From the IMG/VR virus record IMGVR_UViG_3300021963_000022: a stretch of 64,000 nucleotides of DNA. The stretch is one strand, 5' to 3'. Numbering within the stretch: position 1 is the first letter of the stretch; each line of letters begins with the position of its first letter. The translations under genes and the position numbers were made by a program. Positions 7,883-55,584 of this stretch are shown here, piece by piece. The notes under the pieces were generated by a model, which was given only the letters and a program-made list of their open reading frames with translations, did not search any database and was not told the DNA's origin. The DNA comes from a virus (taxonomy: Duplodnaviria > Caudoviricetes).

Positions 7883-8785
7883 TTATTCTTCGTAGCTAGT
7901 GCTAGAACTAGCTTGGCGTGACCAACTTGGGTTAAGACCATTAATTTCTAAAATGTCATCACGTATGTTCTGATTACGTTTTTCCGTATTCAATACCCTG
8001 CAAAAACTATTAGTTATAGCAGCCGTATAGTAAGCAAAAGGGTTTGCTGATTTTGCTTCATTGAAACGTAACCCAACATATGTTAGTTGTAGTATTGCCG
8101 AATTACGCATTTCGTCATTGTATGTATACCCACGCCAATTGAACTTCATTGCATATTTTTCGCACATCATAATATACATACGGGCAAGTTTGTTAGTGAT
8201 AGTACCGTGATCCTTATTGAATTCACCGGTAGTCAAATCTCCTCGCCAATGACTTTTCCCGATACAGTTAAATGTATTGTTACTATCTAATCTAAAATGT
8301 TGAAATGGTGGAAAGTTAACTTTGACATGAACCATATCATCTACTTCTGCTTTAGTTGTAGTATCTTCTAAGTCAGCAAAAATCTCATCCAAATCCGGTT
8401 CTTCAAACTCAAAAATATCTTTTGCTGTTTTCTTTTTAATTGTTTTGCGAGGTTGTTTTGGTGCAACAGGAACGTGATCCCACGTCATTACACGAAATAC
8501 TAAATCAGTCGTTGGGATAGATTCCGGATTAACTGAATCTTTTGCCCCCGCTTCTAAGCTAAGACGGGTAGCCCTAGTTTCTTTTGCTAGTTGAATTGAT
8601 TCTGGTTTGAATGCAAATTCTAAGCTTTCTTCAATCGTACTTTGTGGTATATCTACTATAAAGTCGTATTTGTGATCGTTTTCTGGATCTAAGAATGTGC
8701 AATATGAATTTTTGCTTGAGTGGATTTCTTTAAGAATATCTTTGTTATTAAGATAATTTACTGGTTTTTTGCTAGGTAAGCTCAT
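7883..8785 (-). CDS. gp55: T4 gp55-like late-transcription sigma factor with large N-proximal insertion
   Basis: NYLNNKDILKEI start; NWRGYTYNDEMR...RFNEAKSANPFAYYTAAITNSFCRVLNTEKRNQNIRD core; gp55-gp47-gp46 synteny. Confidence 0.85.
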   Translation of the reverse strand: MSLPSKKPVNYLNNKDILKEIHSSKNSYCTFLDPENDHKYDFIVDIPQSTIEESLEFAFKPESIQLAKETRATRLSLEAGAKDSVNPESIPTTDLVFRVMTWDHVPVAPKQPRKTIKKKTAKDIFEFEEPDLDEIFADLEDTTTKAEVDDMVHVKVNFPPFQHFRLDSNNTFNCIGKSHWRGDLTTGEFNKDHGTITNKLARMYIMMCEKYAMKFNWRGYTYNDEMRNSAILQLTYVGLRFNEAKSANPFAYYTAAITNSFCRVLNTEKRNQNIRDDILEINGLNPSWSRQASSSTSYEE

Positions 8786-31300: not shown

Positions 31301-34300
31301 AAAAGATTACTATTTTAGGTTCAGTATTGGGCGGTGTAAATGTAGTTAATGATGCTACTATTACTATCACTAGTGTAACCAGCTTAAATGCAATTCAAAC
31401 TGCATTTGTGTCTGGTGTAGCTGTTGGTGGATTTAGGTCTTATTATGTAACACCTATTAGTAGTACAACTATAAAGATATTTAATGATATCAATATGACT
31501 ATTCCTACTCCAGTAGCAAGTTTCCCTTACACCGTAGGAGATCAAGGATTTGTTAACGATCCTGCACTAGCAACAAGTAGCTCAAGTTATAACTACACAA
31601 ACTATGTTGTTTATAAAGACAAGATATTTAAATGTGTTCAAGACACCAACAGTCGTACTTTCTTATACGATCAGTGGGAAGAAGTAGATTCTAATCTTGA
31701 GTTGTTCAATGCTTTGGATCGTATTGTTGGTTATTATCAACCAACAAGCGACATGCCTGGCAAAAACTTGCAAGGGCTTGTTAAAGGTATAACATATACT
31801 AATAATACATATTATGGTAATCAGTTCGCACCAGAAGATCAATATCCATTAGATATCAATCTAAAAGGTCAATACTTCTATCCAGCATATGTTGATATTA
31901 GAAGTATTACGTATGACGGGACACAATATGTTGCTGTGGGTGAAAATGATAGTAACTCAGTTGTATTAAAGAGTACTAATGGCACAACTTGGAGTATTGC
32001 AATTATTTCAGAGCAACCATTGGACGTACGTGATATTGTATACGATAGTACAGCCGGTGCATATGTTATAACATCATACAATTCTACTACTCCTGTGTTG
32101 ATTAGTTTTGACGCTATTACTTGGGCGTCAAGCGGCCCATTCACACCGTACGATATTGGTGGGTATGACGATGATCCTTTTGATAGAACATCTATTAACC
32201 TATCTAATATGCAAATGGTCGGGGACACATATGGTAACGGCTTATATGTTAGTGTAGGTAATAGATATATTATTACCAGCGATAATGGAATAAGTTGGGA
32301 GAAACGTTTCGACTTTGGTGATACAACTCGTACATTGAATGCAGTATCATATGCAAACTTAACTGCATTTGATGGCTTTGTTGCTGTGGGTGGACATACC
32401 TCTACTAGTACTGGCTCTGGCACTATAACATACGGTGATATTGTAATCAGCTATGATGGTGTTAATTGGACTTATTTAACTCCTCCGTTAACTGGTTATA
32501 AGCTGTATGGTGTGGCTGCTGATAGCACATATATTGTTGCTGTTGGTGAATCAGGTGTAACTTATTACACAACCAATGGTAGTAACTGGGTTACTGGACA
32601 AGTATTATCTTCTGCTGACTTTTATGATTTAGTGTATGCTAATGGATTGTTTGTTGCTGTAGGTGAAGGTGGAGAAATCTATACTTCTACTGATGGACAA
32701 GTATGGACAAGCAGTACATCTGGTGTCACTGATAACCTTAAAGGTGTATATTACAACGGTACTCAGTATGTAGCAGTAGGTGATAATTCTACTATATTGT
32801 TTAGTTCGGATGCTATTACATGGACTAAGGTCGGATTGTTGCAACAGAATGCACCGTTCTATGACGTACAGGGTTCATCATTTGATTATGGTTATGCACC
32901 GGAAGAAATGGTTGCAGGTGTAGTTAGTGATAATTTATCCATGTATGTAAAATCTAGACCAAGTGGGTCATGGGATTATCAAACATATCAGCATACTGGA
33001 TTCAGTATGGTGTCAAGAGTGGCATCACCTGATGTGAATAACACGGTAAGTTTTGATGGGTTAGTTGATATCCCTGCAACTGTATCTGTGTTTGTAGTAG
33101 ATCCTATTACGTTAATTGGAAATCGTATTTACGAAAGCACATCAGTTACTAATATCAACTACACTTATACAGTGGATTGGACTAACAAGACAATAACACT
33201 TGATAATGCATTAACTAGTAATGAAACTATCTTAATAGAAGTATATGAAGTTGGTGGCGGCAGTCAGCTTGCTAAAGATTCTACTGACAACGTTCCGTTA
33301 AGAATAAACAATATTAACGGATTTAGCGAGATACATTTGGGTTATAAATATGATAGTCAAATATATTTTACTCCTATATGTTTCTTAAATGGTGTTAAGT
33401 TAACATATATTTCTGATTTTTACTTAGATACTACAAGTCAAGGAACTACTAAGATTTCCTTCAATGATACATATGTACAAGGTGTTGACTACATCACCTA
33501 CACTATTTTTGGTAATACTGTTTCAACAGGACAACCTGAGCAATATGGTTTTAGTATCCCTGAAACACAAGTTATTGTAGCTGATGGTACTGCTACATCA
33601 TGGGCGTTAGATAATTTTGTATATTATATTTCACCGTTGGACACAGCATCACAGCTTTCAGTAAATGATACTGCTATTGTTGAAATCAATGGTATAAGAA
33701 AAACTACACCAGCAGATTTAACATATAACATTACACCTAATATCTCTGCAATTATAAGTGTGTCTGCAGCCAATGCATTCTCATTTGTTATAGCTACGTA
33801 TCCAGATATAGATAAAGTAGTTGCAGGAAGTAATATTACATTTGGATCTGATCCCACGTTGTATCCAATCACTGCAAGTAATGTAGACCCCGGTGACTCA
33901 TCATTATGGACATTAACAACTACAGGAGCACCTAGCGTATTGCCCGGTACTGGAGTAGTAGTTTCTGCTATTATCGTATTTGATACCGCACCTTCAGCAG
34001 ATGATATTGTAGCAGTAACAACTTTTAACGATACTCGTCAACAAGCATTAGTGCTAGATACTGATACTAATTTCGAAGTAAATCAAATTTATTATATCAA
34101 TAATAGTATTACACCTGTGCAACTTGTATTAGCAAATCCAATTGGATCCGGCGCTTGGGCTAATGGTACTATGATTAGAATTGATGGTATCGAAGGTAGT
34201 GTTCAGTTAAATAACAATATATTTTATGTAAAACAAAATACTACAAATACATATGCGTTATTTCTTGATCCTGCAACCACTACACCCTTGCAAAGTAAAT

Positions 34301-41657: not shown

Positions 41658-42912
41658 ATATAGATTATACTACGATGAATATGGGTATCCTATAACTTAT
41701 GTATGTGTAGTTGATTCTATAGAGCCAACTAACATCAATGGAAAATATATAGTTGTAGACCATTTTGACTTCCTATGCAAGAATCATAGTATAAAAGTTA
41801 TTAACGGAAAAATAGTTAGTTTAGAAGAAGCTACAGCACCGCGCAAATTCATTAAGCACAGATCAGGTATAAAATGTGCAAAACAGGACATATCTATTGT
41901 AGTAGATGATGATTACAACAACATAATAAGATGGGGAATAAATGATATGACAGATAACGTAATAGACGCAGATGATATAATTGATATAGCAGACTTAGAT
42001 TGTGTCTATCTCAGCTATGACGAACCACAAAAAGAAGAATTCTGGTTAAAGATTAAAAACATGGTGCCTTGGGCTAAACGTGTTGATGGCATTAAAGGCA
42101 GTGACGCCGCACACAAAGCCGCAGGTGAAGCAAGTGACACCGAACGTTTTATCTTAATTGATGGTGATAACATGCCGAATGAATCTTTCTTCAATATGCA
42201 ATTAGACTTTTCAGACAAAGATCCAATCTATAAACAAGCACAGTTCAGATGGAGAGCAATCAATAGTATTAACGGCTTGCGATACGGCAATGGTGGAATG
42301 AGTTCATGGACAAAAACATATGTACGTGAAATGCAAACACACGAACACAGCGACGGCAATGATACAACTACAGTTGATTTCTGTTTGGATTCTTCTGATA
42401 ACTTATACTGGGCAATGTACGATTGCTATAGTACAACTTATCCAAATTACTCACCATTTCAAGCATGGAGAGCAGGCTTTCGTGAAGGTGTTAAGATGTG
42501 TTTAGCTGGTGGCAAGAGACCTAGTGTAGACGAGTTCAAACAAAGTGTAGCTAGTAGAAACTTCAATAATTTAACCATATGGCATAACATTGGTCGTGAC
42601 GTAGAGAACGGTGAATGGGCTATATACGGAGCACGATTAGGTACATACATGACTATGCTTACAGAATGGGATCCAAAGAATGTTCAATGGTTTGATAATT
42701 ATACTGTACTATGGGAAGAACATATAAATAGAGATCCAGACCGTGAGTCAGCATTGCTCGGAGCCGCATTACACGATAAGCTAAGCCTGCCGATGCTTCA
42801 TTTTGATGGGTCACAGAGTAAATTTTTTAAACGTCATTATAACGCAGACAAACACAATCTAGGTCCTCTAGTTCGTGAGATGGATGTAATTCGTAGAATA
42901 GAAGGATGGTAA
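41647..42912 (+). CDS. Fusion: ~100-aa small domain plus GT-A-like glycosyltransferase domain
   Basis: N-terminus matches 38423; from M at 41947: DCVYLSYDEP, HKAAG, FILIDGDN (DxD), YGNGG, AWRAGFREGVK. Confidence 0.65.
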   Translation: MSDEYRLYYDEYGYPITYVCVVDSIEPTNINGKYIVVDHFDFLCKNHSIKVINGKIVSLEEATAPRKFIKHRSGIKCAKQDISIVVDDDYNNIIRWGINDMTDNVIDADDIIDIADLDCVYLSYDEPQKEEFWLKIKNMVPWAKRVDGIKGSDAAHKAAGEASDTERFILIDGDNMPNESFFNMQLDFSDKDPIYKQAQFRWRAINSINGLRYGNGGMSSWTKTYVREMQTHEHSDGNDTTTVDFCLDSSDNLYWAMYDCYSTTYPNYSPFQAWRAGFREGVKMCLAGGKRPSVDEFKQSVASRNFNNLTIWHNIGRDVENGEWAIYGARLGTYMTMLTEWDPKNVQWFDNYTVLWEEHINRDPDRESALLGAALHDKLSLPMLHFDGSQSKFFKRHYNADKHNLGPLVREMDVIRRIEGW

Positions 42913-44291
42913 TGTCAGATAATCATATAGACAAAGTTCATAAAGAGATTAACGAAATTAGTCCTAGTTTCTGTGTAGCTAAGTGGAAGCAAGTAACAAT
43001 GCATCTGCAAAATGGTCACACACATAGCTGTCATCACCCGTCATCACATCATGTGCCTGTAAGTGAAATTAAAATTAACTCTACAGCATTACACAATAGT
43101 GAATATAAAAAGCAACAACGAAAGTTAATGCTTGAAGGTGTTCGCCCGCGGGAATGTGATTACTGTTGGAATGTAGAAGACACTAATCAACATTATAGTG
43201 ATAGAACTTTTAAGAGTGCGGATCAATCATGGGCATATCCTTATATTGATGAGATTGTTAACAAGCCTTGGAACGCTAACATTGATCCTAGCTACGTAGA
43301 AGTAAGCTTTGGTAACGTATGTAACTTCAAATGCAGTTACTGTGCTCCTCAGATAAGCAGTCAGTGGATGGAAGAAGTTGAAAGATACGGTGCATACCCG
43401 ACAAGCAATCAATTCAACAATTTAGAATGGTTAAAAGCTACTGATGCAATGCCTATTCCAAATAACAAAGAGAATCCTTATGTTGATGCTTTTTGGAATT
43501 GGTTTCCTGATATGTACAAGAGTCTTAAGTACTTTAGAATCACAGGTGGTGAGCCATTACTAAACAAAAACACATTCAAAGTATTAGATTACATTATTGA
43601 AAATCCTAACACAGATTTGGAAGTTGCAATCAATACTAATATGAATGCACCAGACGAGTTGATGGATAAGTTTATTGAAAAAGTAAAAATCATTATCAAT
43701 GAGAAGAAACTAAAACGATTTAAATTGTTTACTTCTGCTGAAGCACACGGTAAAGCAAGCGAGTATATTCGTTATGGTATGAATTACAATGACTGGATTG
43801 CTAACATGCACAAGATGTATCAAGCTATCCCGGGCATTCAGTTTACTATAATGAGTACATATAACTTGTTAAGCGTCACTACATATACTGACTTCTTAAA
43901 AGATATACTATCATTCAAACAACAGTATGGTACTACAACACACTATCCAATGCTATTAGATATACCTTATCTACGCTATCCTTTGCACCAAAGTGTGTTT
44001 ATCATGGAACAAGAACAATTGGACCTAATGCAAAGTCAAATAGATTTTATGGATAGTAATGTAGTTGCTAACAATATGTCACATCAAGCATTTTATCCAG
44101 AAGAAGTTGAACGTCTTAAACGTATTCAAACATTGATTAAATCTCATATTGATGATCCTAAGCCGTGGTTTGATACCAGTCGTAAAGACTTCATCATATT
44201 TGTTAATGAACATGACCGTAGAAGAAAAACAAACTTTTTAAAGACATTCCCTAAACTTACTAACATGTACAACAGGTGGTCTAAACTATGA
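42912..44291 (+). CDS. Radical SAM protein with N-terminal Cys/His cluster
   Basis: CNFKCSYC, TGGEPL, N-terminal FC...HSCHH...CDYC; start at 42912. Confidence 0.9.
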   Translation: MSDNHIDKVHKEINEISPSFCVAKWKQVTMHLQNGHTHSCHHPSSHHVPVSEIKINSTALHNSEYKKQQRKLMLEGVRPRECDYCWNVEDTNQHYSDRTFKSADQSWAYPYIDEIVNKPWNANIDPSYVEVSFGNVCNFKCSYCAPQISSQWMEEVERYGAYPTSNQFNNLEWLKATDAMPIPNNKENPYVDAFWNWFPDMYKSLKYFRITGGEPLLNKNTFKVLDYIIENPNTDLEVAINTNMNAPDELMDKFIEKVKIIINEKKLKRFKLFTSAEAHGKASEYIRYGMNYNDWIANMHKMYQAIPGIQFTIMSTYNLLSVTTYTDFLKDILSFKQQYGTTTHYPMLLDIPYLRYPLHQSVFIMEQEQLDLMQSQIDFMDSNVVANNMSHQAFYPEEVERLKRIQTLIKSHIDDPKPWFDTSRKDFIIFVNEHDRRRKTNFLKTFPKLTNMYNRWSKL

Positions 44292-45103
44292 AGATAGCAG
44301 TATTGATAAGTGGGGAGTATAGAACATTTGGACATTGTAGAAGAACAATGGATTTTCTGTATGATCCACGTGTTGATATATACGTAAGTACATGGGATAG
44401 CTCATCTTACGTTAGCCCTAAAATTAATCTAGACCATACAGAATTGGTTAATTATGACCGTGTTGTTAATGATTTACACAAAGATGCTACAGTACTAATT
44501 GAACCACAAAGTTTAATTAAGGAAGTAAAATATAGCACTAAGATGATGCATCGTTGGATATCAGGGTTTAATCTTATAAAAGAAAGCAATAATCACTATG
44601 ACTATGTGATTGTAATGCGACCTGATTTGTTCTTTAATTACAGTTGCCCAATCGACTTAAACAGTATAGAACAATATGAAAACTCATTAGGAGTAGCATG
44701 GGCTACTGACGAATACATTACTAATAGAAAACTACAAGATGTTTTGTTTCTTTCAACCTATAGCAATATGAATAAGTTGTTTAGTACATTAGACATTAAC
44801 AAATGGATTATCGGTGGTGAGGGTGATTGGCATACGTGGTGGTTTAATCATTGCAATAATACATTACCAATTGCGTATGCTAAAAATTTTAGTAATTGCA
44901 CTTTCTATCGCTATCTAACTGATAACAATAACCCTACTTTTGATGATGTAATGAATGCACAACATAATTGGCGTGATTTACAGTTACTCAATCAGATAGA
45001 TATTATGGGAAGAGATGCACTCAAAACTGCATGGCCGGAGAATGTGATTCAAAATGCAGAAGATAAGTGGAACAACGGGTATTTTAATAAGTTTATCAAA
45101 TGA
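44288..45103 (+). CDS. Putative glycosyltransferase-like protein (IAVLISGEYR family)
   Basis: KIAVLISGEYRTF, YVSTWD, YDYVIVMRPD. Confidence 0.55.
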   Translation: MKIAVLISGEYRTFGHCRRTMDFLYDPRVDIYVSTWDSSSYVSPKINLDHTELVNYDRVVNDLHKDATVLIEPQSLIKEVKYSTKMMHRWISGFNLIKESNNHYDYVIVMRPDLFFNYSCPIDLNSIEQYENSLGVAWATDEYITNRKLQDVLFLSTYSNMNKLFSTLDINKWIIGGEGDWHTWWFNHCNNTLPIAYAKNFSNCTFYRYLTDNNNPTFDDVMNAQHNWRDLQLLNQIDIMGRDALKTAWPENVIQNAEDKWNNGYFNKFIK

Positions 45104-46533
45104 ACATAGCAGTGTTAATTTCTGGTGAGTACAGAGAATTTGAAATAGCGCATCCAAGTTGGGAATTCGATAAATGCGGCAAAGTGGATTACTATTTTTC
45201 AACATGGGCAGAGACCTCTGAGGTTAACGATAACTTAAACATCAATATACATGAGACTGTAACAATCGATAGGATACAAAAATATTTACCGATCACTGAC
45301 TACGTTATCTCTCAGCCACTGTATTACTTATATAACCAGCAAAAAATGATTAATCGTTGGCATGAAGGTTTAAAACTAATACATAAAAGTAACAAAACAT
45401 ACGATGTAATCATTCTTATACGACCTGACTTATATATTGAATATAGTGATTTGTTACAAGACTTCATATCCAAAATGAACTCTAATACCATGTATTGTTA
45501 CGGTGACTTTCACCGTAATGGAATTGGTAACGTCATGGATCAAATATTCATCGGAGATAGCAATACGATTCTAAAGTTGTTAGACATAGATTATACAACC
45601 CCTAAGTTAATTGAGACAACTAACATACATGAATTTTTAGCAGAACATTTTAATCGATTGTTTAACTCTATCCAATTAATACCGTTTAATAAGTTCTACA
45701 TAGCTAGAAGTAATAGTAGAGGTTTAGCTTCATACTCATATGAAATTATAAAAACAAACTCCGAAATATGGTATCAGCAAAAACATCTACGAGAAACTGT
45801 TGTAACTAAATTTAAAGGGTTTTCTAAATCACACGTGATGTTGATAGAAAATTCATTCAGCAAACGCTTTGTTAGAAAACGCAAAAACGTTCAACGTAAC
45901 CATGACAAGATGAAAGAGTTGGCATCACATGGCTTCAACGTACCTAAAATTATAAACATGCGTAACGATACGCTAGATATGGAATACATATCGGGTATTG
46001 ATATGAAAACGTTTATATTACGGCACGATGTAAAGCTGTTAGCAAACTCTATCATAGAAACAGTTGATAGGTTTAAGTACACCAGTAAGTCTAAAAACTA
46101 TGCAAACACATATCAAGAACAGTTAGCATTGATTGATTGTAGTGAGTTGCCATTTACATCCGATGAATTATATATTAGATTACCAAAAGACTTACCACAA
46201 AGTCTATGTCATGGTGATTTCACATTAGAGAATCTACTATACAGTAATGGTAAGTTTTATATGATAGATACTGTAACCGGCCCATATGATAGTTGGGTAT
46301 TTGATATTGCTAAGATGAGACAAGACATAGATGGTCACTGGTTTCTTAGAGACGGTAAGACTGAACTTACGGTTCAATTAAAGATTTTACACGATATATT
46401 AGAATCAGCTTTTGCTATTGCATTTGACAATAATTTATACATATTGATGCTACTCAGAGTGTACAGACATTGTAAAGTAGGTACAACAGAGCATAGATTG
46501 ATATTAGAGGAGATAAAGAGATTATGGAAGTAA
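45100..46533 (+). CDS. Fusion: IAVLISGEYR domain plus APH/choline-kinase-like phosphotransferase
   Basis: N-half paralogous to 44288; C-half FKGFSKS, CHGDFTLENLL, FYMID, DIAKMRQD. Confidence 0.75.
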   Translation: MNIAVLISGEYREFEIAHPSWEFDKCGKVDYYFSTWAETSEVNDNLNINIHETVTIDRIQKYLPITDYVISQPLYYLYNQQKMINRWHEGLKLIHKSNKTYDVIILIRPDLYIEYSDLLQDFISKMNSNTMYCYGDFHRNGIGNVMDQIFIGDSNTILKLLDIDYTTPKLIETTNIHEFLAEHFNRLFNSIQLIPFNKFYIARSNSRGLASYSYEIIKTNSEIWYQQKHLRETVVTKFKGFSKSHVMLIENSFSKRFVRKRKNVQRNHDKMKELASHGFNVPKIINMRNDTLDMEYISGIDMKTFILRHDVKLLANSIIETVDRFKYTSKSKNYANTYQEQLALIDCSELPFTSDELYIRLPKDLPQSLCHGDFTLENLLYSNGKFYMIDTVTGPYDSWVFDIAKMRQDIDGHWFLRDGKTELTVQLKILHDILESAFAIAFDNNLYILMLLRVYRHCKVGTTEHRLILEEIKRLWK

Positions 46534-47201
46534 TTGTACCTGCCGCCGGATTATCTACCCGTTTTCCGGGTACTGTACCAAAATACTTGCTTACTGATAA
46601 CAATGGTAAGATAATGTTACACAATGCTATAGAACCTTATATAGGTAAATATAATGTTACTGTTGGTATACTTAAACAACATGATGAGTTGTACAACAGC
46701 GGAGATATTATCAGAGAGCTAGGTGTTAACGTTGTAGTGTTACCTGAAGTAACTAGGGGTCCAGCTGATACTGTATATCAGATTATAAATCTAGCACAAA
46801 TACATATTGACCATTCTTTTTTCATTAAAGATTGTGATAGTTACTTTGACCATGAAGTTTCAGATGGTAATTATATTTGCATATCTACGGTAAGTGAGCA
46901 TGATGTTCTATATAAGATAGCAAACAAGAGTTTTGTTATAGCAAATGAACATGGTATAGTTCAAAGTATAGTAGAAAAGTCTATTGTTAGTAATGAGTTT
47001 TGTGTGGGCGGATATAAGTTTAATAGAATTTATGATTTTGTATCAGCGTATGAAAAGTTGATACATAGTATGACAAATGAATTCTTTGTCAGTCATATCA
47101 TTCAGTATAATATTAGTAATGGTAAAACATTCTTAACTAAGAAAGTTACTGAGTATGTTGATGTAGGAACTATTAAAGAATGGCAAGAACAAAATGTTTA
47201 A
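46524..47201 (+). CDS. Sugar-phosphate nucleotidyltransferase-like protein
   Basis: IVPAAGLSTRF...PKYLL, TRGPADT, IKDCDS, C-terminal DVGT. Confidence 0.8.
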   Translation: MEVIVPAAGLSTRFPGTVPKYLLTDNNGKIMLHNAIEPYIGKYNVTVGILKQHDELYNSGDIIRELGVNVVVLPEVTRGPADTVYQIINLAQIHIDHSFFIKDCDSYFDHEVSDGNYICISTVSEHDVLYKIANKSFVIANEHGIVQSIVEKSIVSNEFCVGGYKFNRIYDFVSAYEKLIHSMTNEFFVSHIIQYNISNGKTFLTKKVTEYVDVGTIKEWQEQNV

Positions 47202-47295
47202 TCTTATTAAGAATATATACTTAAAGATGGTACGAGAGTACAAATATCGCAAAAGGTTAAAGGCAATGAAGAAACGTGATCCCTTTATTTATTAA
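47194..47295 (+). CDS. Small basic peptide (33 aa, ends KRDPFIY), not in ORF track
   Basis: MFNLIKNIYLKMVREYKYRKRLKAMKKRDPFIY; overlaps the upstream stop and ends 3 nt before the carbamoyltransferase. Confidence 0.65.
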   Translation: MFNLIKNIYLKMVREYKYRKRLKAMKKRDPFIY

Positions 47296-47298
47296 ACC

Positions 47299-48795
47299 AT
47301 GAACTACATAGGAATATCAGCAGGGTTTCACGATGCCGCATTGAGTATTGTAGATAATAGTGGTAATATTCTATTTGCTGGACATAGTGAACGTTACAAT
47401 AAACACAAGCACACTAAACACTTAGGCATTGACATTATAGAAGATGCCAAACCATACCTAACATCTAGTGATATCGAGGTTCATTATTACGAAAGGCCGC
47501 TAATTAAATATTTACGGCAATTGCGTAGCGGAGAAAAAACTATGATATCTAGTTTATCTGCAAGAGAGATCATAGGTACAGGCTTACTTCACCGTTTAGA
47601 AGATGGACGCAAGAGTAAGATTCATACACATAATCATCATTTAAGTCATGCGGCAGCAGGGTTCCAAACTAGTCCATACACTGATGCCACAGTGGTTGTT
47701 ATTGATGCTATTGGTGAATTTGATACTATTACTATTTGGAATGCTTACTATGATAAGAACGGTGTAGCGCAATATAAGAAACTATGGGGACAACAGTACC
47801 CAGATAGTATAGGGTTATTTTACTCCGCAATGACTAAGAGAGCAGGATTAAGCCCGATGGATGAAGAGTACATTTTAATGGGTATGTCTGCTTACGGAAA
47901 CATTCTTCCGTTGAAAGAAATGTCTACATCATTAATTAAGTCATACAAAAATATAGTGTTCAATGATAACTTACATATAGGTGTGCCTGATGATTTTATA
48001 AAGGATGCTAATGTAATGGATATCGCATATAGTACACAACTAATAGCAGAACAGTTGATTACTTCAGTGATTAGTAAAGCAAGAATGCTAAGTAGTAGTA
48101 AGAATTTAGTATATGGCGGAGGAGTAGCATTAAATTGTTTAGCAAATCGATTATTAGGGGATTATTATGATAACATTTGGATTATGCCTAATCCTGGCGA
48201 TGCTGGTTCTAGTCTTGGTGCATGTGCGCTCGGTTACGGTAAACAGCTTAATTGGACTAGTGCTTATTTGGGTCATACTATACCTGGTGATTACCCTGTT
48301 AATCGTCTACTTGATAATCTTATTACCACTGGCATTGTTGGTGTGGCTAGTGGTCGTGCTGAGTTTGGACCTAGAGCCCTTGGACATAGAAGCTTACTTG
48401 CAGACCCAAGAGGAAAAGAAATAAAGGATAAAGTAAATGAAATTAAACATAGACAAAAATTTAGACCCTTTGCGCCAGTTATTTTGGAGGAGTATACTGA
48501 TATGTATTTTGATATCCCTTGTGGCTGGAGTAACAGTAGGTATATGCAAGTCATCAGTCGTTGTCGGGTTCCTGACTTATTTCCTGCTATTATTCATTAT
48601 GACAACACTAGTAGGGTACAGACTGTTCCAAAGGATGGCTCCGGAATACGAGAACTACTAGAAAAATGGTATGTTATGACCGGTTGCCCTATGCTACTTA
48701 ACACTAGCTTGAATGTACGAGGTGAACCAATGGTCAATGACAGAGCGGATGCAGATCGATTTGAAAAACTATATGGTATAAAAGTACTATCATAA
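47299..48795 (+). CDS. O-carbamoyltransferase (NodU/CmcH/TobZ family)
   Basis: GISAGFHDAA, HHLSHAAAG, DAIGE, GGVALNC, EFGPRALGHRS, FRPFAP, LLNTSLN. Confidence 0.95.
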   Translation: MNYIGISAGFHDAALSIVDNSGNILFAGHSERYNKHKHTKHLGIDIIEDAKPYLTSSDIEVHYYERPLIKYLRQLRSGEKTMISSLSAREIIGTGLLHRLEDGRKSKIHTHNHHLSHAAAGFQTSPYTDATVVVIDAIGEFDTITIWNAYYDKNGVAQYKKLWGQQYPDSIGLFYSAMTKRAGLSPMDEEYILMGMSAYGNILPLKEMSTSLIKSYKNIVFNDNLHIGVPDDFIKDANVMDIAYSTQLIAEQLITSVISKARMLSSSKNLVYGGGVALNCLANRLLGDYYDNIWIMPNPGDAGSSLGACALGYGKQLNWTSAYLGHTIPGDYPVNRLLDNLITTGIVGVASGRAEFGPRALGHRSLLADPRGKEIKDKVNEIKHRQKFRPFAPVILEEYTDMYFDIPCGWSNSRYMQVISRCRVPDLFPAIIHYDNTSRVQTVPKDGSGIRELLEKWYVMTGCPMLLNTSLNVRGEPMVNDRADADRFEKLYGIKVLS

Positions 48796-48803
48796 GTATC
48801 TTT

Positions 48804-51500
48804 ATGCTACGAGATGTGTTTTATTACGGGGACAAACCCAATGTACATCCCCGAGAACGTTACGCCAAAGACTTTGATACAGCTAAACAACTAGCTACAA
48901 CTGAACACTTTTGGATTGTTAACGAGTTCTGTGATTACAAAAATATTGATTGGGATTTTGATTTTGAATTCTTACCCGATGAAGATGTATGGGCAACAGA
49001 CCATATCAATATCTGGCCTAGTCAATGGCAGAGTGATAGTGGTACATGGTTATGCTCAGTAAAAGCTGACAATGTAAAAATATATCGCACAGACGTAGAA
49101 CCTGTACATAGAAAAAACGTCATTTCAAGACACTGGGTGAATACTGAAAAGTTTGATACTACTCAGTTTGACTATAGCTGGCATCCTGATCCCGATGAAC
49201 CACCGTTCATATTTCAATTTGGCACTCAATGGGCAAAAACACATGGTCCTAAATACGTATCAGATGGTGCAACTAATATTAAGTATATAACTGAGCCTAA
49301 TGCTAAAATTAAAGCAGATATGACACATTGGGAAAATGCTGTAATTAAAGATTTTGATTATAGCTGGCATCCAGACGCAACTAGTCCACCGTACATATAT
49401 CAGTTTAATACGTTGCTTGATCTAGACCCCGGCCCTAGATATGTTGTACCGGGTCATAATAATAAAGTAGTTAACATTGACCGTGATATAAGCAGTCTTA
49501 ATTTCCCGGTATACTATATTCAATCATCATTAGATGAGTTGATTGAACAGCACCCTGATGAAGTCTTCTGGGCATTGCGTGATAACATTGACTATGATAA
49601 GTTTGATTTTACATGGCGTCCGACTATTGCTAACTTTAAGTATATAAATGTGTTTGGTTCTACTGATAGTGAATCGACACAAAGTTACTTTGTCAATACT
49701 AAAATGATAAAGAAAGGATACAAAGATTTTAACTATATTGAGAACAAACAGTTAGATGATGAGTATCTCGCTAGGTTGTTTAAACCAATTGATATGTTCT
49801 ACATTGATAGAGGAAACCCGCAATCACAAACACAATTTAATGCACTTAAAGAACGTTTCCCTAATATTAAAAAGACACGTTACATAGGATCATGGACTGA
49901 TACTATTGCAAGATGTATTAATCATTGTAGCACAGAACTATTTTGGGTATTGAATAGCGAACTAGATTACAGCGAGTTTGACTTCATATATTATCCTAAT
50001 CCATGGCAAATGCGAATGATACATATATTTGGAACACAATGGACTCATTGGGGTAACACATATGTTATTAATAAAGAACTCTTTTTAGAGAGTACAAAGT
50101 ATGTTAAGGTCATTGAACATTTAAACGGTCTTAACTTTGTAAAAACTAAACGGGCTAAAGCATCAAATGTATTATATGATATTGTTTACATTGACCATGG
50201 CAATACTGATATGTCACACTTAGTAGAGCAGGGTAAGATAGTTGTTAAGTATAGAAATAGTTATATTGACACATTCAAAGACTTGTTACCGTTGCTCCCT
50301 GAAAAGAAAGAACATTATGTTTGGGTAGCTAGTTCTATATGTGATTACAGTTCATTTGATTTCACATACATATGTGATCCTTTTACTAGAGAACAACTAC
50401 ATGTATTCCCTAGTGATAGTCAGAAGTTTGGTGATACGTTCTTAATCAATGTTAATAAACTGCGTGAAGTTATTAATGATGTAGAGTTACTTGAAGATAC
50501 TGAAGTAAATTATAACAAGCAACAGCAAGTATCTAGATTACCTGCACCAACATTCACTAATACAGATTCACATGCAAATAGTATTAATGTTGACTATAAC
50601 TTTCCCTATGCTGTGTTTATGACTGCTGATAACATTGTAGAGTACAAAGATACTGAAACAATCAATCTATGGAGTAATAAAGATAAGAACATATTGATTA
50701 CACACGAAGGCGGGACACGCATCATTGTACCCAAAGAAGCTAGTAAAACAGTTACTAATGAATTGTATGAATATCCATATATAAAAACTATATCAAAGAC
50801 TAATACTAGTAAGCCATTAGATATTGTATTCTTTAGTAACGGTGAAACTGTTGCCGATCAAAACTATGAACATCTGTTGAATGTTACTAAAGGTATGCCC
50901 AACAATGTTAAACGCATTGATAAAGTATCTGGTCGTGTAGCTAGTCAACATGCGGCAGCTAACATATCAGATACTAATTGGTATTTTCTTGTTAATGCTA
51001 AGTTGAAAGTGTCAGATAAATTTGATTGGCAATGGCAACCTGATAGATTACAAGAACCAAAACATTATATATTCAACGCATTGAACCCAGTTAATCAATT
51101 AGAGTACGGTCATATGGCTATTGTTGCTAACAACAAGAAACTTACATTGAATACAGAAGTAAATGGGTTAGACTTTACTTTGGCTAGTAAGCATCAGTCG
51201 CTAAATATTCTGTCAGGTGTTGCTCTGTTCAATACTAGTGAGTTAGAAACATGGCGTACCGCATTCCGTGAGACACTAAAGATTAAAGACAGTGTAGTAA
51301 AGAACAATGACACCGCAAGCAAATATAGATTGCGTAATTGGTTAAACGTTGCAGAGGGCGATTATGCCCAAACATGTATACAAGGTGCTAATGATGCTGT
51401 AAAGTATTATGAATCAGTAGATGGTAACATGGACAAGTTAATGCTCAGTTATGATTGGGCATGGTTGAGTGAATATTATAAACAGCTTTATGGAAAATAA
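48804..51500 (+). CDS. Multi-repeat GT-A-like protein
   Basis: About five tandem degenerate domains related to the 41947-42912 domain; last has YGHMA and TWRTAFRE; TAAGTA 5 nt before the ATG. Confidence 0.6.
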   Translation: MLRDVFYYGDKPNVHPRERYAKDFDTAKQLATTEHFWIVNEFCDYKNIDWDFDFEFLPDEDVWATDHINIWPSQWQSDSGTWLCSVKADNVKIYRTDVEPVHRKNVISRHWVNTEKFDTTQFDYSWHPDPDEPPFIFQFGTQWAKTHGPKYVSDGATNIKYITEPNAKIKADMTHWENAVIKDFDYSWHPDATSPPYIYQFNTLLDLDPGPRYVVPGHNNKVVNIDRDISSLNFPVYYIQSSLDELIEQHPDEVFWALRDNIDYDKFDFTWRPTIANFKYINVFGSTDSESTQSYFVNTKMIKKGYKDFNYIENKQLDDEYLARLFKPIDMFYIDRGNPQSQTQFNALKERFPNIKKTRYIGSWTDTIARCINHCSTELFWVLNSELDYSEFDFIYYPNPWQMRMIHIFGTQWTHWGNTYVINKELFLESTKYVKVIEHLNGLNFVKTKRAKASNVLYDIVYIDHGNTDMSHLVEQGKIVVKYRNSYIDTFKDLLPLLPEKKEHYVWVASSICDYSSFDFTYICDPFTREQLHVFPSDSQKFGDTFLINVNKLREVINDVELLEDTEVNYNKQQQVSRLPAPTFTNTDSHANSINVDYNFPYAVFMTADNIVEYKDTETINLWSNKDKNILITHEGGTRIIVPKEASKTVTNELYEYPYIKTISKTNTSKPLDIVFFSNGETVADQNYEHLLNVTKGMPNNVKRIDKVSGRVASQHAAANISDTNWYFLVNAKLKVSDKFDWQWQPDRLQEPKHYIFNALNPVNQLEYGHMAIVANNKKLTLNTEVNGLDFTLASKHQSLNILSGVALFNTSELETWRTAFRETLKIKDSVVKNNDTASKYRLRNWLNVAEGDYAQTCIQGANDAVKYYESVDGNMDKLMLSYDWAWLSEYYKQLYGK

Positions 51501-51502
51501 GA

Positions 51503-52111
51503 ATGCCGTATAAAACAGATATATTGGGATGGATGGTTGAGTCCGAGTTAAAAGTCTTAGAGACTATTGCAAAACAAGTTCCTGTCAATGGAAATATTGT
51601 AGAAGTAGGATCAATGTTTGGTAGAAGTGCTGTTTGCTTTGCAATGTCAGCAGATCCCAGTGTTACCATCAATTGTATTGACTATTTTCCTACTGATATG
51701 AGACAACAGCATGGTTGTTCAGATGAGGATTCAATTAAAAACAGTTTCCCTATTGCTGATAAACTGTATAATGTTGAGCAAGACTTTATAGAGAATACCA
51801 AAGAGTTTAAGAATATCAATATGATAAAGGGTGATAGTCCGCATATATTAGTATATACTCCTGATCCTATTGATTTGTTTTTCTTAGATGCAGGGCATGC
51901 CAATCCTAATGATTGGGACAATTTATGTCACTTCATACCCTATATGAAATTGAATGGTATTATTGCAGGACATGATTATCACCCTACACAGTTCCCTGAT
52001 GTATGTGAGAATGTTAGACGATTAGAAGAATTATTTGATATTAAAGCGGAATTATATCCCGGCTCAAGTATTTGGTCTATAAAAGTGACTAAATTAATAA
52101 ATAAAGTATGA
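51503..52111 (+). CDS. Class I SAM-dependent methyltransferase (Methyltransf_24-like)
   Basis: IVEVGSMFGRSA, IDLFFLDAGH, IAGHDY. Confidence 0.85.
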   Translation: MPYKTDILGWMVESELKVLETIAKQVPVNGNIVEVGSMFGRSAVCFAMSADPSVTINCIDYFPTDMRQQHGCSDEDSIKNSFPIADKLYNVEQDFIENTKEFKNINMIKGDSPHILVYTPDPIDLFFLDAGHANPNDWDNLCHFIPYMKLNGIIAGHDYHPTQFPDVCENVRRLEELFDIKAELYPGSSIWSIKVTKLINKV

Positions 52112-52203
52112 AAACTTTTGTTTTGTTAGTTATAGGAGTCTGTATTGCTGTATGTATATACTGGCTAATGGACTGGCAAAGTCACCATGAAGATGGTGAG
52201 TAA
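52108..52203 (+). CDS. Putative single-TM peptide (31 aa)
   Basis: MKTFVLLVIGVCIAVCIYWLMDWQSHHEDGE; TAAATA at 52098-52103 just upstream; overlaps the tmRNA acceptor region. Confidence 0.5.
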   Translation: MKTFVLLVIGVCIAVCIYWLMDWQSHHEDGE

Positions 52204-52552
52204 AGTTATTGCTGTACGAAGCAAAGAGAAAAGTGTCTTGGAAGGGGGTGCGAATCCCCCCAGGTCCACCATAAGGAAGTTTATGAATATTGAATGGTAT
52301 CACGTATTGTTATGTTTAGCAGTTCCGCTAAACTACTTTTACTGGATAGTATTACATAGATTCTTTATGAAGGGCCTGATATAGATTCGACAGGGCAACA
52401 AGTAAATTAGTGGACAGCTCGGCAAAGCAGAAGCCGTTAGGGTTGGGGGAACTCGGCCGTAGAAGCAAAAAAGTAATCGCAAACGATTCACAATTCCTAT
52501 TGGCAGCAAACGCCTAATAGCGAGGTAGTTATACCTTGTAACCAAAAATAGC
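52182..52552 (+). ncRNA. ssrA: Circularly permuted (two-piece) tmRNA
   Basis: T-arm GGGGG-TGCGAAT-CCCCC plus CAGGTCC-ACCA (ends 52271) lies upstream of 5' acceptor strand GGGCCTG-ATATAGATTCGAC (starts 52372), with a G3-U70 pair. Resume codon GCA at 52479 gives ANDSQFLLAANA*. Outer ends approximate. Confidence 0.9.
52283..52384 (+). CDS. Hydrophobic 33-aa ORF inside the tmRNA intervening sequence
   Basis: AAGGAAG RBS then MNIEWYHVLLCLAVPLNYFYWIVLHRFFMKGLI*. Confidence 0.5.
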   Translation: MNIEWYHVLLCLAVPLNYFYWIVLHRFFMKGLI

Positions 52553-52576
52553 ATAGGGACTTCGGTCCCTATTTTT
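52553..52576 (+). terminator. Intrinsic terminator after tmRNA, probably bidirectional
   Basis: ATAGGGAC-TTCG-GTCCCTAT-TTTT with AAAAA upstream. Confidence 0.85.
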
Positions 52577-52688
52577 CTGGGTATTGCCATGTCCAAGTAC
52601 CGTCTTTTCTGTATAAGCGTTTTCTTCCTGTGACGGTAGCAGATAATTTTCCTGCGCTTTTTCTTCCATTTTCGGCAGCAGTAGGCAA
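52569..52688 (-). pseudogene. Probable C-terminal remnant of a homing-endonuclease-like gene
   Basis: LPTAAENGRKSAGKLSATVTGRKRLYRKDGTWTWQYPEK*; no RBS, in-frame stop just upstream; resemblance recalled from memory only. Confidence 0.4.
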
Positions 52689-52721
52689 AGAGGATTATGA
52701 AACAATTTAATTGTTTCACGG

Positions 52722-52745
52722 AAAGGTCACTAAGGTGACCTTTTA
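52722..52745 (+). terminator. Intrinsic terminator-like hairpin
   Basis: AAAGGTCAC-TAAG-GTGACCTTT followed by TATTTT. Confidence 0.65.
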
Positions 52746-52747
52746 TT

Positions 52748-52776
52748 TTGGCTTTAACTACACAATGATATATAAT
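52748..52776 (+). promoter_or_regulatory. Sigma70-type promoter TTGGCT-17-TATAAT, leaderless start at 52783
   Basis: -35 at 52748-52753, -10 at 52771-52776, ATG 6 nt downstream. Confidence 0.7.
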
Positions 52777-52782
52777 CATACT

Positions 52783-53085
52783 ATGAGCAATGAACTAGCA
52801 AAATATATAAATTCTCGTCGCCGTTTCCGTGATGAAACTGCAGTCAAAAAACAAGTTAAGATTGCAAAAGCGCATGGTCTTACTAATAAAGATAAAGCTA
52901 TAAAAGAACCACATCGTTTAGCTAAACATCATGCAATGGATTGTGGTCAACCAGGATGTATGCTTTGCGGTAACCCTCGCAAAACACATAAAGATAAACT
53001 AACTGCACAAGAAAAACGTATGTATCAGGATGTAGATAAAACTAACGATAAACATAGCAATGGAATTAAACCGGAAGATATATGA
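52783..53085 (+). CDS. Basic Cys/His-containing hypothetical protein
   Basis: HRLAKHHAMDCGQPGCMLCGNPRK; start set at 52783 from promoter spacing. Confidence 0.75.
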   Translation: MSNELAKYINSRRRFRDETAVKKQVKIAKAHGLTNKDKAIKEPHRLAKHHAMDCGQPGCMLCGNPRKTHKDKLTAQEKRMYQDVDKTNDKHSNGIKPEDI

Positions 53086-53477
53086 CAACAGTATTTGTTA
53101 ACGGAACATTTGACATTCTTCATTTAGGTCATATCGGCCTACTTGAACACGCTAAAAGCTTAGGTGATGAACTTATTGTCGGTATCGATAGTGATGCTAG
53201 AGTAAAAGTATTGAAGGGTGAAAATAGACCCATCAATACTGAAAGAGAACGAGGATTAATGCTACTTGCAACCAAGTATGTAGACAAGGTATTTGTATTT
53301 GATACAGATGTAGAACTAACTGAATTAGTTAGTACATGTGATATTATGGTTAAAGGCAGTGATTATGTAGGTAAACGTATCATTGGTAGCGAAGTATGCC
53401 CTCAGCTTGTATTTTTTGATCGAATAGATGAATACTCAACCACACAAAAAATTCAAAATATTATTGATCGGGGATAA
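53082..53477 (+). CDS. Heptose-1-phosphate nucleotidyltransferase (HldE/RfaE domain II, HldC-like)
   Basis: NGTFDILHLGH, VGIDSD...KGENRPIN, KGSDY, STT. Confidence 0.85.
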   Translation: MTTVFVNGTFDILHLGHIGLLEHAKSLGDELIVGIDSDARVKVLKGENRPINTERERGLMLLATKYVDKVFVFDTDVELTELVSTCDIMVKGSDYVGKRIIGSEVCPQLVFFDRIDEYSTTQKIQNIIDRG

Positions 53478-54192
53478 TTGTTTAGATGTATATCAATTTG
53501 GAATAGTTGATAGACTAAGCCCCGAAGCTCCTGTACCTATATTTGTTCCTCTTTACAAAGAAGAACGCAGTGGTATGGTTGGCAACGTATATAACAACTT
53601 AGTTAACTTAGATTGTGACGTAACATTATATTCAGGTAGCACAAGTGTTAAGACCAGAATGATTGATGCTAGAAGCAAACAACAAATCATTCGGGTAGAT
53701 AATGATATAATATCTGAACCATTGACGATTGATGATATCAATATTGAGCATGATGCTATTGTAATCAGTGACTACAATAAAGGGTTAGTATCATATGAAT
53801 TGATTGAAAACATATTAGCAGTAGCTAAATGCCCCGTGTTCATTGATACTAAATTAACTGATTTAGAACGTATGCAAGGTGCATGGGTTAAAATTAACAA
53901 CCTAGAATACAGTAGGATTAAAAGTGAATGTTCAGGTCTAATCGTAACTAATGGTGCACGTGGTGCTAGTGTAATATATCACGATATACAATGTCCTGCT
54001 ACTAAAGTAGAAGTTGTTGACGTTACTGGTGCGGGAGATACTTTCTTATCAGCATTAACATATCAATATCTAGTTACTAAAGATATAAAATCAGCAGTTG
54101 AATTTGCCATCAATGCATCAAGTATAACTGTACAACACTTGGGCGTTTATGCACCAACACTAAATGAAATAGAAATAGAGGGACTTAGATGA
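53428..54192 (+). CDS. PfkB-family heptose-7-phosphate kinase (HldE/RfaE domain I, HldA-like)
   Basis: RLSPEAPVP, KTR...QQIIRVD, SDYNKG, DVTGAGDT. Confidence 0.85.
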   Translation: MNTQPHKKFKILLIGDNCLDVYQFGIVDRLSPEAPVPIFVPLYKEERSGMVGNVYNNLVNLDCDVTLYSGSTSVKTRMIDARSKQQIIRVDNDIISEPLTIDDINIEHDAIVISDYNKGLVSYELIENILAVAKCPVFIDTKLTDLERMQGAWVKINNLEYSRIKSECSGLIVTNGARGASVIYHDIQCPATKVEVVDVTGAGDTFLSALTYQYLVTKDIKSAVEFAINASSITVQHLGVYAPTLNEIEIEGLR

Positions 54193-54545
54193 GATTAGAA
54201 GGGTTTGTAGAAAAAGGTTGGGGACATGAATTTATCTTTGCTACTAATGATAAGTATTGCGGTAAAATTCTATCCTTCAATAAAGATGCAAAATTCAGTA
54301 TGCATTTTCATGGTGAAAAAGATGAAACATGGTATGTGTTAACTGGGGAATTTATCGTAAGACACATTGATACTACTAATGCAGAAATTAATGAAACAAA
54401 GTTAACTACAGGGGATACATGGCGTAATCTTCCTTTATTCCCACATCAAATTATATGCATAGAAGAAGGTGTTATAGTTGAAGTTAGTACACCGGATAGT
54501 GTAGAAGATAATTACAGAGTCATGCCCGGAGATAGTCAAAAATGA
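54189..54545 (+). CDS. Cupin-fold sugar isomerase-like protein
   Basis: KGWGHE, SMHFHGEKDETW, PH, EVSTPD...DNYR. Confidence 0.75.
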   Translation: MRLEGFVEKGWGHEFIFATNDKYCGKILSFNKDAKFSMHFHGEKDETWYVLTGEFIVRHIDTTNAEINETKLTTGDTWRNLPLFPHQIICIEEGVIVEVSTPDSVEDNYRVMPGDSQK

Positions 54546-54835
54546 AATACATAGTAGATATAGATGGTACAATATGTACTGTAACCAACGGTGATTATTC
54601 AAACGCGGAGCCTTATCTATCACGCATAGCACATTTTAATATGTTATATGATGCGGGAAATGAGATACATTATTGGACAGCACGTGGTGCTAATACTGGA
54701 AAGAATTGGGATGATATTACATTAATGCAGTTAGCCGATTGGGGCGCAAAATACACCACTGCTAAAACAGGTAAGCCTGCATATGATATATGGATTGATG
54801 ATAAAGCATTTAACATAGGAACATATTTCAAATGA
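54542..54835 (+). CDS. Small HAD phosphatase (capsule-biosynthesis EcbF/BcbF-like)
   Basis: VDIDGTIC, WTARG, KP..D..IDDKA. Confidence 0.8.
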   Translation: MKYIVDIDGTICTVTNGDYSNAEPYLSRIAHFNMLYDAGNEIHYWTARGANTGKNWDDITLMQLADWGAKYTTAKTGKPAYDIWIDDKAFNIGTYFK

Positions 54836-55584
54836 AAATATTATTAACAGGATATAAAGGATTCATTGGCTCTAACATGCTCAAAATGTTAGACGGTCAT
54901 GAAGTTGTAACATATAACTGGGGTGATGCATTACCTTCAGTTGCAGGATTAGATTGGGTCGTCCACATGGGCGCTATCAGTAGCACTATTGAACGCAACA
55001 TTGAAAAGATTATGTTACAGAATTACGATTTTAGCTGTTGGCTATTGAATGAGTGCATTGCAAACAACGTAAACTTTCAGTATAGTAGTTCAGCAAGCAT
55101 ATATGGATTGAGTACAGAGTTTGTTGAAACTAGTCCAGTCGATCCTCGCACACCTTATGCTTGGACAAAGTACTTGTTTGAACGTTTTGCTAATAGAGAA
55201 TGCAATATACGTATACAGGGTTTTAGATACTTCAATGTGTATGGTTCAGGTGAAGAAGAAAAGGGAGATCAAGCTAGTCCTTTCTATAAGTTTAAAAAAC
55301 AAGCAGAAGAAAACGGATTTGTTAAATTATTTGAAAACAGTCAGCACTATAGACGAGACTTTGTCCCAGTAAAACAAGTATGTCAAACACATATTGATTT
55401 CTTTAATGTAAAAGAATCAGGTGTATGGAACGTAGGTACAGGAACACCTATGAGTTTTTATGATGTCGCTAAACAATTTACTGATAACATCATAGAGATA
55501 CCCTTACCTGATATACTAAAAGATAGTTATCAAGAATTCACATGTGCAGATATGACTAAAACCAATACATCATTGGGTAGATAA
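54832..55584 (+). CDS. hldD: ADP-L-glycero-D-manno-heptose 6-epimerase-like SDR
   Basis: TGYKGFIG, HMGAISST, QYSSSASIYG, YAWTK, FRYFNVYG, RRDFV. Confidence 0.8.
   Translation: MKILLTGYKGFIGSNMLKMLDGHEVVTYNWGDALPSVAGLDWVVHMGAISSTIERNIEKIMLQNYDFSCWLLNECIANNVNFQYSSSASIYGLSTEFVETSPVDPRTPYAWTKYLFERFANRECNIRIQGFRYFNVYGSGEEEKGDQASPFYKFKKQAEENGFVKLFENSQHYRRDFVPVKQVCQTHIDFFNVKESGVWNVGTGTPMSFYDVAKQFTDNIIEIPLPDILKDSYQEFTCADMTKTNTSLGR

Follow-up and report, generated by a model that had tools for sequence, protein, structure and literature searches.

A two-piece tmRNA gene, probably functional and of the beta type, in an uncultured Rak2/Atu_ph07-like jumbo phage

Phages are known to carry tmRNA genes, huge phages among them (PMC7162821), and the current tmRNA database holds 79 phage sequences (PMC11915505). 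Such genes are present in 2.3% of phage genomes (PMC9004378), and 53 two-piece tmRNAs, mostly aquatic, have been counted among 18,146 phage genomes (Buchholz 2022, PMC9004378). Among the closest described systems are those of the Methylophilales phage Melnitz and the pelagimyophages, lytic T4-type aquatic phages that carry a permuted ssrA gene near transcription signals and for which no SmpB of their own is reported; the gene is proposed to keep translation going in infected cells (PMC9004378). The gene studied here is alike in these respects. In Melnitz, a phage of OM43, the gene is of the alphaproteobacterial type and follows a glutamine riboswitch (PMC9004378), whereas the present gene fits the beta type best, its carrier is a jumbo phage (roughly 350 kb), and both its leader and its spacer contain protein genes; an Rfam search of the 64-kb stretch of DNA analysed here (IMG/VR record IMGVR_UViG_3300021963_000022; hereafter the window) detected no riboswitch. 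The betaproteobacterial two-piece tmRNA was reportedly described by Sharkady and Williams in 2004. Two further phages serve for comparison. We found a permuted tmRNA gene in the cultured, 200-kb Xanthomonas phage X1 (RF04321, 77 bits; beta type best; tag VAANDADYSVARYA), where it is unannotated and occupies an ORF-free gap of the record (OQ427096.1 about 120978-121428; 2980-3430 of our excerpt L001). The X1 gene has the same acceptor stem and the same beta-type best match as the gene in the window, and differs from it in having a canonical T loop and another tag. Sinorhizobium phage Phosso, which shares synteny of baseplate and giant-protein genes with the window, has an alpha-type gene like that of its host (RF04321, 113 bits). 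No RF04321 match was found in Atu_ph07 or Salicola phage SCTP-2. As phage two-piece tmRNAs have already been published, the gene in the window adds a member to a known kind and is not the first of its type.

An earlier note, made from the letters of the window, had proposed a phage-encoded circularly permuted two-piece tmRNA. Two independent detectors, ARAGORN and Rfam, uphold this proposal, as do covariation and the phage genes found in the window. ARAGORN calls one RNA gene in the whole 64 kb, a permuted tmRNA at 52179-52608 (+) with the tag ANDSQFLLAANA followed by two stops. The covariance model RF04321 (tmRNA_permuted) matches above its cut-off, with 101 bits against a gathering threshold of 47 (E 1.6e-18 in the 64-kb window), over 52210-52517 and the full model (1-213). 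RF01850 (beta_tmRNA) reaches 82 bits against a gathering threshold of 84, with the whole model aligned to 52160-52575, and under laxer thresholds it is the top-scoring model of the tRNA/tmRNA clan for this gene; its alignment takes in the 3' element CCUUGUAACCAAA and the terminal hairpin. The gene extends over about 52205-52578 (+), and its parts and immediate surroundings are as follows.

52097..52103, + strand: ATAAATA box resembling a T4-type late promoter (motif statistics; gp55-like sigma factor encoded)
52108..52203, + strand: 31-codon gene for a small hydrophobic peptide ending ...YWLMDWQSHHEDGE, between the ATAAATA box and the tmRNA
52205..52271, + strand: acceptor piece (models, fold, covariation), its 5' end approximate and inferred from promoter spacing in relatives
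52244-52260, + strand: T arm, 5-bp stem GGGGG/CCCCC with the loop UGCGAAU at 52249-52255 (sequence)
52261-67 and 52268-71, + strand: acceptor 3' strand CAGGUCC, then ACCA (sequence)
52272..52371, + strand: intervening segment of 100 nt between the encoded CCA and acceptor G1, predicted to be removed on maturation; an insert in the covariance-model alignment
52283..52384, + strand: 33-codon gene for a hydrophobic peptide, in the spacer, with the Shine-Dalgarno sequence AAGGAAG right after the CCA
52372..52578, + strand: coding piece (ARAGORN, Rfam, terminator scan, fold, covariation)
52372-78, + strand: acceptor 5' strand GGGCCUG (sequence)
52379-90, + strand: D-loop analogue, part of the coding piece
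52391-52419, + strand: 3' strands of P2a-c (fold, covariation)
52420-52462, + strand: stem-loops after the P2 strands, part of the coding piece
52479..52520, + strand: tag reading frame, with the GCA resume codon, ANDSQFLLAANA and then TAA TAG (ARAGORN)
52521-38, + strand: 3' hairpin, part of the coding piece
52553..52578, + strand: intrinsic terminator of an 8-bp stem, UUCG loop (hairpin 52553-52572) and U tract (terminator scan), corresponding to the beta_tmRNA terminal hairpin
52339..52779, - strand: ORF of 146 codons over the coding piece, with no Pfam family

The layout is permuted as proposed, with the CCA-bearing 3' half preceding the 5' half (CCA 52269-71, G1 52372, tag 52479-52514), and the tag frame and UUCG terminator were located where the note had put them, from the sequence and by ARAGORN. 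The acceptor stem, GGGCCUG against CAGGUCC, reads at the claimed positions and carries the G3-U70 pair. Together with the A73 discriminator and the encoded ACCA that follow the 7-bp stem, these are alanine identity elements. With the RF01850 beta type the gene shares the order of elements, the P2 layout, a single pre-tag hairpin, a 3' element of the CCUUGUAACCAAA type and the terminal hairpin; it differs from the bacterial beta type in scoring 2 bits below the cut-off, in its long coding spacer and in its phage carrier. The antisense ORF is probably not a gene, having no Pfam family and facing an RNA supported by covariance models and covariation. Gene-calling programs will overlook the RNA and annotate a spurious ORF across it.

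The tRNA-like domain has a distinctive T loop. In UGCGAAU a G stands at the place of U55, departing from the canonical T loop (U54 U55 C56), and the arm itself is retained; the beta type of RF01850 has UUCGAUU together with a D-loop GG, whereas the window has UGCGAAU and a D-loop AG (52382-52383). Relatives were gathered by scanning IMG/VR with a 28-base word spanning the T arm and acceptor, and all members found in this way have the loop UGCGAAU (among the matches listed). A second IMG/VR scan, with the same acceptor stem and a canonical T loop, gave at least 120 matches. Among the matches listed, UGCGAAU goes with a D-loop AG in 61 of 62 distinct genes, and UUCGAxU genes have a D-loop GG in 72 of 76, the remaining four having the GG offset by one extra base. 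One gene, L126, is the sole mixed case and is possibly recombinant. The two positions correspond to the G18-U55 tertiary contact of tRNAs. Their association in these alignments may represent a compensated swap, or equally a single inherited event.

The two pieces are predicted to be held together by several helices. A two-strand fold of 52205-52271 against 52372-52578 yields, at minimum energy, the acceptor stem, the T arm, P2a (52234-40/52391-97) and P2c (52211-15/52414-18), with a fold energy of -89.5 kcal/mol against -79.1 +/- 3.3 kcal/mol when the acceptor piece is shuffled. The scan with the 28-base word returned at least 119 contigs. Among the matches listed, the 5' acceptor strand could be located in 109, of which 78 are distinct over the aligned parts. 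The acceptor stem and T arm were left out of the covariation test, having served to find the relatives. In the 78 distinct relatives among the matches listed, P2a (CAGGGCA/UGUCUUG) is paired in 99.6% of cells, with two-sided changes in 3 pairs; P2b (52221-22/52410-11) is paired in 100%, with two-sided changes in 2 pairs; and P2c (ACAGC/GCUGU, 5' strand about 52210-15, partner 52414-18) is paired in 93.8%, with two-sided changes in 4. Nine P2 pairs thus show two-sided changes, and slid registers pair in 5-59% of cells (24-59% for P2a and P2c).

Three inter-piece helices had been put forward, of which CAGGGCA/UGUCUUG and ACAGC/GCUGU are borne out by fold and covariation. The third, AAUAGC/GUUAUU (52547-52/52205-10), is present in the minimum-energy fold of the window sequence but lacks covariation, and we reject it as a conserved helix, since in relatives the 5' UUAUU is constant while the 3' partner varies without compensation. 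A local pairing of the loop GUUAU with AUAGC is an unproven alternative, with a few compensatory variants among relatives that have an equally short loop. The 3' hairpin itself has compensatory variants in relatives (GGGU/ACCU, GGGC/GCCU, GAGGU/ACCUU, GCAGU/ACUGU). In many of them an enlarged loop of this hairpin pairs downstream, forming a clearly covarying pseudoknot; the window copy belongs to a second class, with a short 3' hairpin loop followed by the terminator.

We propose that this locus is a functional beta-type two-piece tmRNA gene of a Rak2/Atu_ph07-like jumbo myovirus, an interpretation that we consider likely, with a mechanism whose steps follow what is established for two-piece tmRNAs. 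A single transcript would start at the late-type ATAAATA box at 52097, or arise by read-through, and would be stopped by the UUCG terminator. Host RNase P would cut 5' of G52372 and trimming would proceed to the encoded CCA at 52271, leaving two RNAs, the acceptor piece (about 67 nt) and the coding piece (about 207 nt), which the acceptor stem and P2a-c would keep together. Host AlaRS would charge the RNA via G3-U70 and A73, and host SmpB and EF-Tu would bring it to ribosomes stalled on broken messages, where translation would resume at GCA 52479 and ANDSQFLLAANA would be appended. The likely gain for the phage is that ribosomes would remain available in late infection, as host transcription and the supply of host tmRNA break down. 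Two small peptide genes, in the leader and in the excised spacer respectively, would ride on the same transcript. The absence of smpB from the window agrees with our search, as SmpB was not found among window ORFs of suitable size; nor was it found (PF01668) in the records of five relatives, two of them complete genomes, in a search in which control genomes matched. The phage tmRNA probably uses host SmpB: with no phage SmpB, the RNA would have to work with the SmpB, AlaRS, EF-Tu and RNase P of the host.

With regard to expression, AATAAATA ends at 52103 and is comparable to the T4-type late promoter with TATAAATA at -10. With 15 copies in the window where about 41 would be expected, ATAAATA is depleted nearly three-fold. 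Of its copies on the + strand, 13 in all, 6 (2504, 8874, 8895, 15911, 36204 and 52097) precede the start of a + strand gene by no more than about 50 nt, the genes including those for a baseplate wedge and a virion protein. The estimated chance of this placement is about 2e-6, such positions making up about 3% of the window. These statistics suggest that ATAAATA is a real promoter word, avoided elsewhere in the window. A gp55-like late sigma factor is encoded at 7883-8785. The box at 52098-52103 from which late expression had been predicted is thus present; late expression of the tmRNA from it is plausible but indirect, since a small gene and a distance of about 100 nt separate the box from the tmRNA. 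A sigma-70 promoter scan of the window found none directly before the tmRNA. In relatives, the promoter ends 4-5 nt before the conserved 5' TTATTGCTGT and is either TTGACA-17-TATAAT or a TAAATA/TATAAATA box; with two kinds of promoter among relatives, different phages seem to express the tmRNA early or late.

The tag of the window copy is unusual. Its resume context, GUAAUC followed by GCA AAC GAU, is standard, and the tag opens ANDSQF as in relatives, whose consensus is ANDxxFALAA. It closes with ANA, whereas nearly all tags of relatives are of the LAA type (99 of 100 among the matches listed), 35 of them ANDSQFALAA. At 52509-11, AAC replaces a TAA stop, a change seen in the window copy only (100 relatives among the matches listed). 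With this ancestral stop lost, the tag is two residues longer and ends in ANA instead of LAA, up to the new double stop (TAA TAG) two codons further on. An LAA end is what is expected for protease recognition. The RNA might therefore enter ribosomes but mainly re-route tagging, with the ANA tag sparing proteins from ClpXP-type proteolysis, or compete for SmpB. The new double stop suggests that termination is still selected, and no SmpB was found in the phages (five relatives). A phage tmRNA consisting of only the tRNA-like domain has been reported to inhibit host tmRNA (PMC4131195, PMC11915505). We nevertheless consider re-routing unlikely, as the 99 LAA-type tags among the 100 relatives listed make the clade look like a standard degradation tagger, and what is seen in a single metagenomic sequence may be an error, or a recent or neutral change. 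Long tags of 27 residues (ANVNKTVTVSGKNLKFSARSAKEALAV) also occur, in L016 (5013-5467), L055 (1907-2396) and L118.

The same substitutions could be taken as signs of a decaying tmRNA gene that is kept mainly for the two small peptide genes. The window copy deviates at three columns that are invariant in 77 relatives (52243, 52509 and 52511), having at 52243 an A for C in the otherwise universally conserved GGAC that precedes the T arm, as well as the lost stop codon. In addition, its beta_tmRNA score of 82 bits compares with 152 bits for the clade relative L175, and a 100-nt insertion separates the promoter box from the RNA. Against this, every helix is intact, the frame is closed by two stops and the terminator is intact, and decay appears improbable to us. 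Relatives show 0-4 such deviations at invariant columns, and as the three of the window fall within this range, we read the window copy as a live gene with an altered tag and not as a wreck; being a single metagenomic sequence, its changes could be assembly errors. Comparison with L016 further points to exchange within these genes. L016 is 95% identical to the window over 52205-52422 and unrelated past 52422. The members with 27-residue tags have the acceptor piece and spacer in common with the window at 95% identity and nothing past 52422, which indicates recombination inside the tmRNA gene; judging by such alignments, pieces of these tmRNA genes have evidently been swapped.

The contigs that carry the 28-mer include complete genomes of 347 and 364 kb with terminal repeats. 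Among 185,579 prokaryote species, represented by one genome each, the 28-mer has two matches, both on Bacteroidota MAG contigs of about 20 kb, one of which encodes a phage nuclease and endolysin and the other of which has phage-style tRNA clusters. As these phage-like matches are the only ones in the reference species, the clade is phage-carried and not a copy of a known resident host gene. The view that phage tmRNAs are uncommon holds overall, but in these aquatic large phages they are very common, and for this big clade tmRNA cargo is the rule and not a rarity. We give almost no credence to the gene being a remnant of host ssrA in an attP-type integration fragment of a temperate phage: tmRNA genes are common integration targets and their fragments are found in prophages (PMC4383910, PMC9004378), but here both pieces are present and the gene is whole, no bacterial chromosome of the reference set contains the 28-mer, and the carrier is a T4-like phage with late sigma and baseplate genes and no integrase among its annotated ORFs.

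Both mature parts are matched, at 85-100%, by contigs that three studies obtained from lake and marine RNA libraries. This indicates presence in RNA libraries only. Contigs of four RNA runs, placed on 52050-52700, align to about 52204-52275 and 52358-52555, with none over the spacer and flanks. The bare spacer was considered as a sign of processing and rejected, as the contigs come from relatives with differing spacers; adapter-flanked ends near 52384-86 were likewise set aside as processing ends because they do not fit G1. The RNA-library contigs include a paired change, C>G and G>C, at 52423/52433, and one of them is identical to the window over 52467-52553 only.

Both the gene type and the AND... 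tag suggest that the gene originated in Proteobacteria. The earlier note had gone further and inferred a proteobacterial host, which we do not follow. The gene fits the beta type best and its tag looks proteobacterial, yet phage and host tmRNA types can differ, as in X1 and Melnitz. Xanthomonas, the host of X1, uses a one-piece tmRNA. Melnitz, too, shows that phage and host forms need not match (PMC9004378). The form of the gene is unsafe as a host marker. The only matches of the 28-mer in reference genomes lie in Bacteroidota bins.

The excised spacer has coding capacity of its own. Directly 3' of the CCA stands UAAGGAAG, followed by the ATG at 52283, and the 33-codon gene ends at a UAG (52382-84) that belongs to the D-loop analogue and lies 13 nt into the coding piece. 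The ORF is retained in L016 and L031: relative to the window, its spacer part has one synonymous change and one replaced codon in L016, and three synonymous changes and one conservative change in L031. The L010/L090 group has an ORF of 41 codons with weak similarity to the spacer gene. Among the matches listed, spacer length ranges from 25 to 491 nt in 109 relatives, and a Shine-Dalgarno sequence with a start codon opens 30 of 41 distinct spacers of at least 90 nt against 8 of 42 shorter ones; 22 of those 30 ORFs fill their spacer. The proteins encoded in spacers across the clade are mutually unrelated and have up to 151 residues. In the tmRNA database paper, only a tRNA gene and a repeat are mentioned within intervening sequences (PMC11915505), and in the literature searched we found no paper that describes small genes housed in the excised spacer, the aspect that may interest RNA biologists. 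A terminator-like hairpin with a weak T run lies at 52314-52333, inside the spacer ORF; if active, it would end transcription ahead of the coding piece.

The leader, too, contains a small gene. The start of the 31-codon gene overlaps the stop of the preceding methyltransferase gene (ATGA), and tblastn finds homologues of its peptide in five other phage loci, L190 (4905-4979; E 2e-9), L248 (305-216), L180 (5810-5718), L241 (6279-6205) and L286 (172-246). Each is followed, after 0-570 nt and in the same orientation, by a phage tmRNA gene, and these tmRNA genes are divergent, differing in tag and T loop. The peptide is of the membrane type and has a conserved end, ...W(L/I)MDW....DGE. The transcript might then double as an mRNA for two small membrane peptides and as the tmRNA precursor, with the two uses coupled. 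As the spacer gene takes its stop codon from the mature coding piece, a cut by RNase P at G1 would make the excised spacer a non-stop message, the peptide of which would be tagged by the same tmRNA. If true, this would be a built-in tie between peptide output and rescue capacity, but it is a tentative idea to which we give a rather small chance. The two embedded genes and the altered tag are the points that deserve a bench test, the tmRNA itself being of a known kind and a well-anatomised example added to the phage-borne ribosome-rescue RNAs. The unannotated copy in X1, a cultured phage, could be an experimental handle.

To judge from its encoded proteins, the window is from an uncultured, T4-type jumbo phage of the Rak2/Atu_ph07-like kind. 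PHROG and Pfam matches include gp46/47-like nuclease subunits, a gp55-like sigma factor, gp5-, gp6- and gp25-like baseplate proteins and virion proteins, and about 34% identity links the gp6-like protein to those of Phosso, Atu_ph07, Salicola phage SCTP-2 and the Rak2/GAP32 group. In those phages, as in the window, a gene for a giant structural protein comes next; here it is an ORF of 5367 residues at 19309-35412, downstream of the baseplate wedge gene and in synteny with the 13-kb genes for structural proteins in Atu_ph07 and Phosso. The GC content of the window is about 36%. Megablast of the 15 kb around the tmRNA against 50,697 phage records gave no match, so kinship to Rak2-like phages is visible at the protein level only. 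The tmRNA lies within a block of sugar and nucleotide-sugar enzyme genes (42906-55584), with radical SAM, carbamoyltransferase, methyltransferase, heptose kinase/adenylyltransferase-like, cupin and epimerase members; in several relatives it is located in a tRNA array instead.
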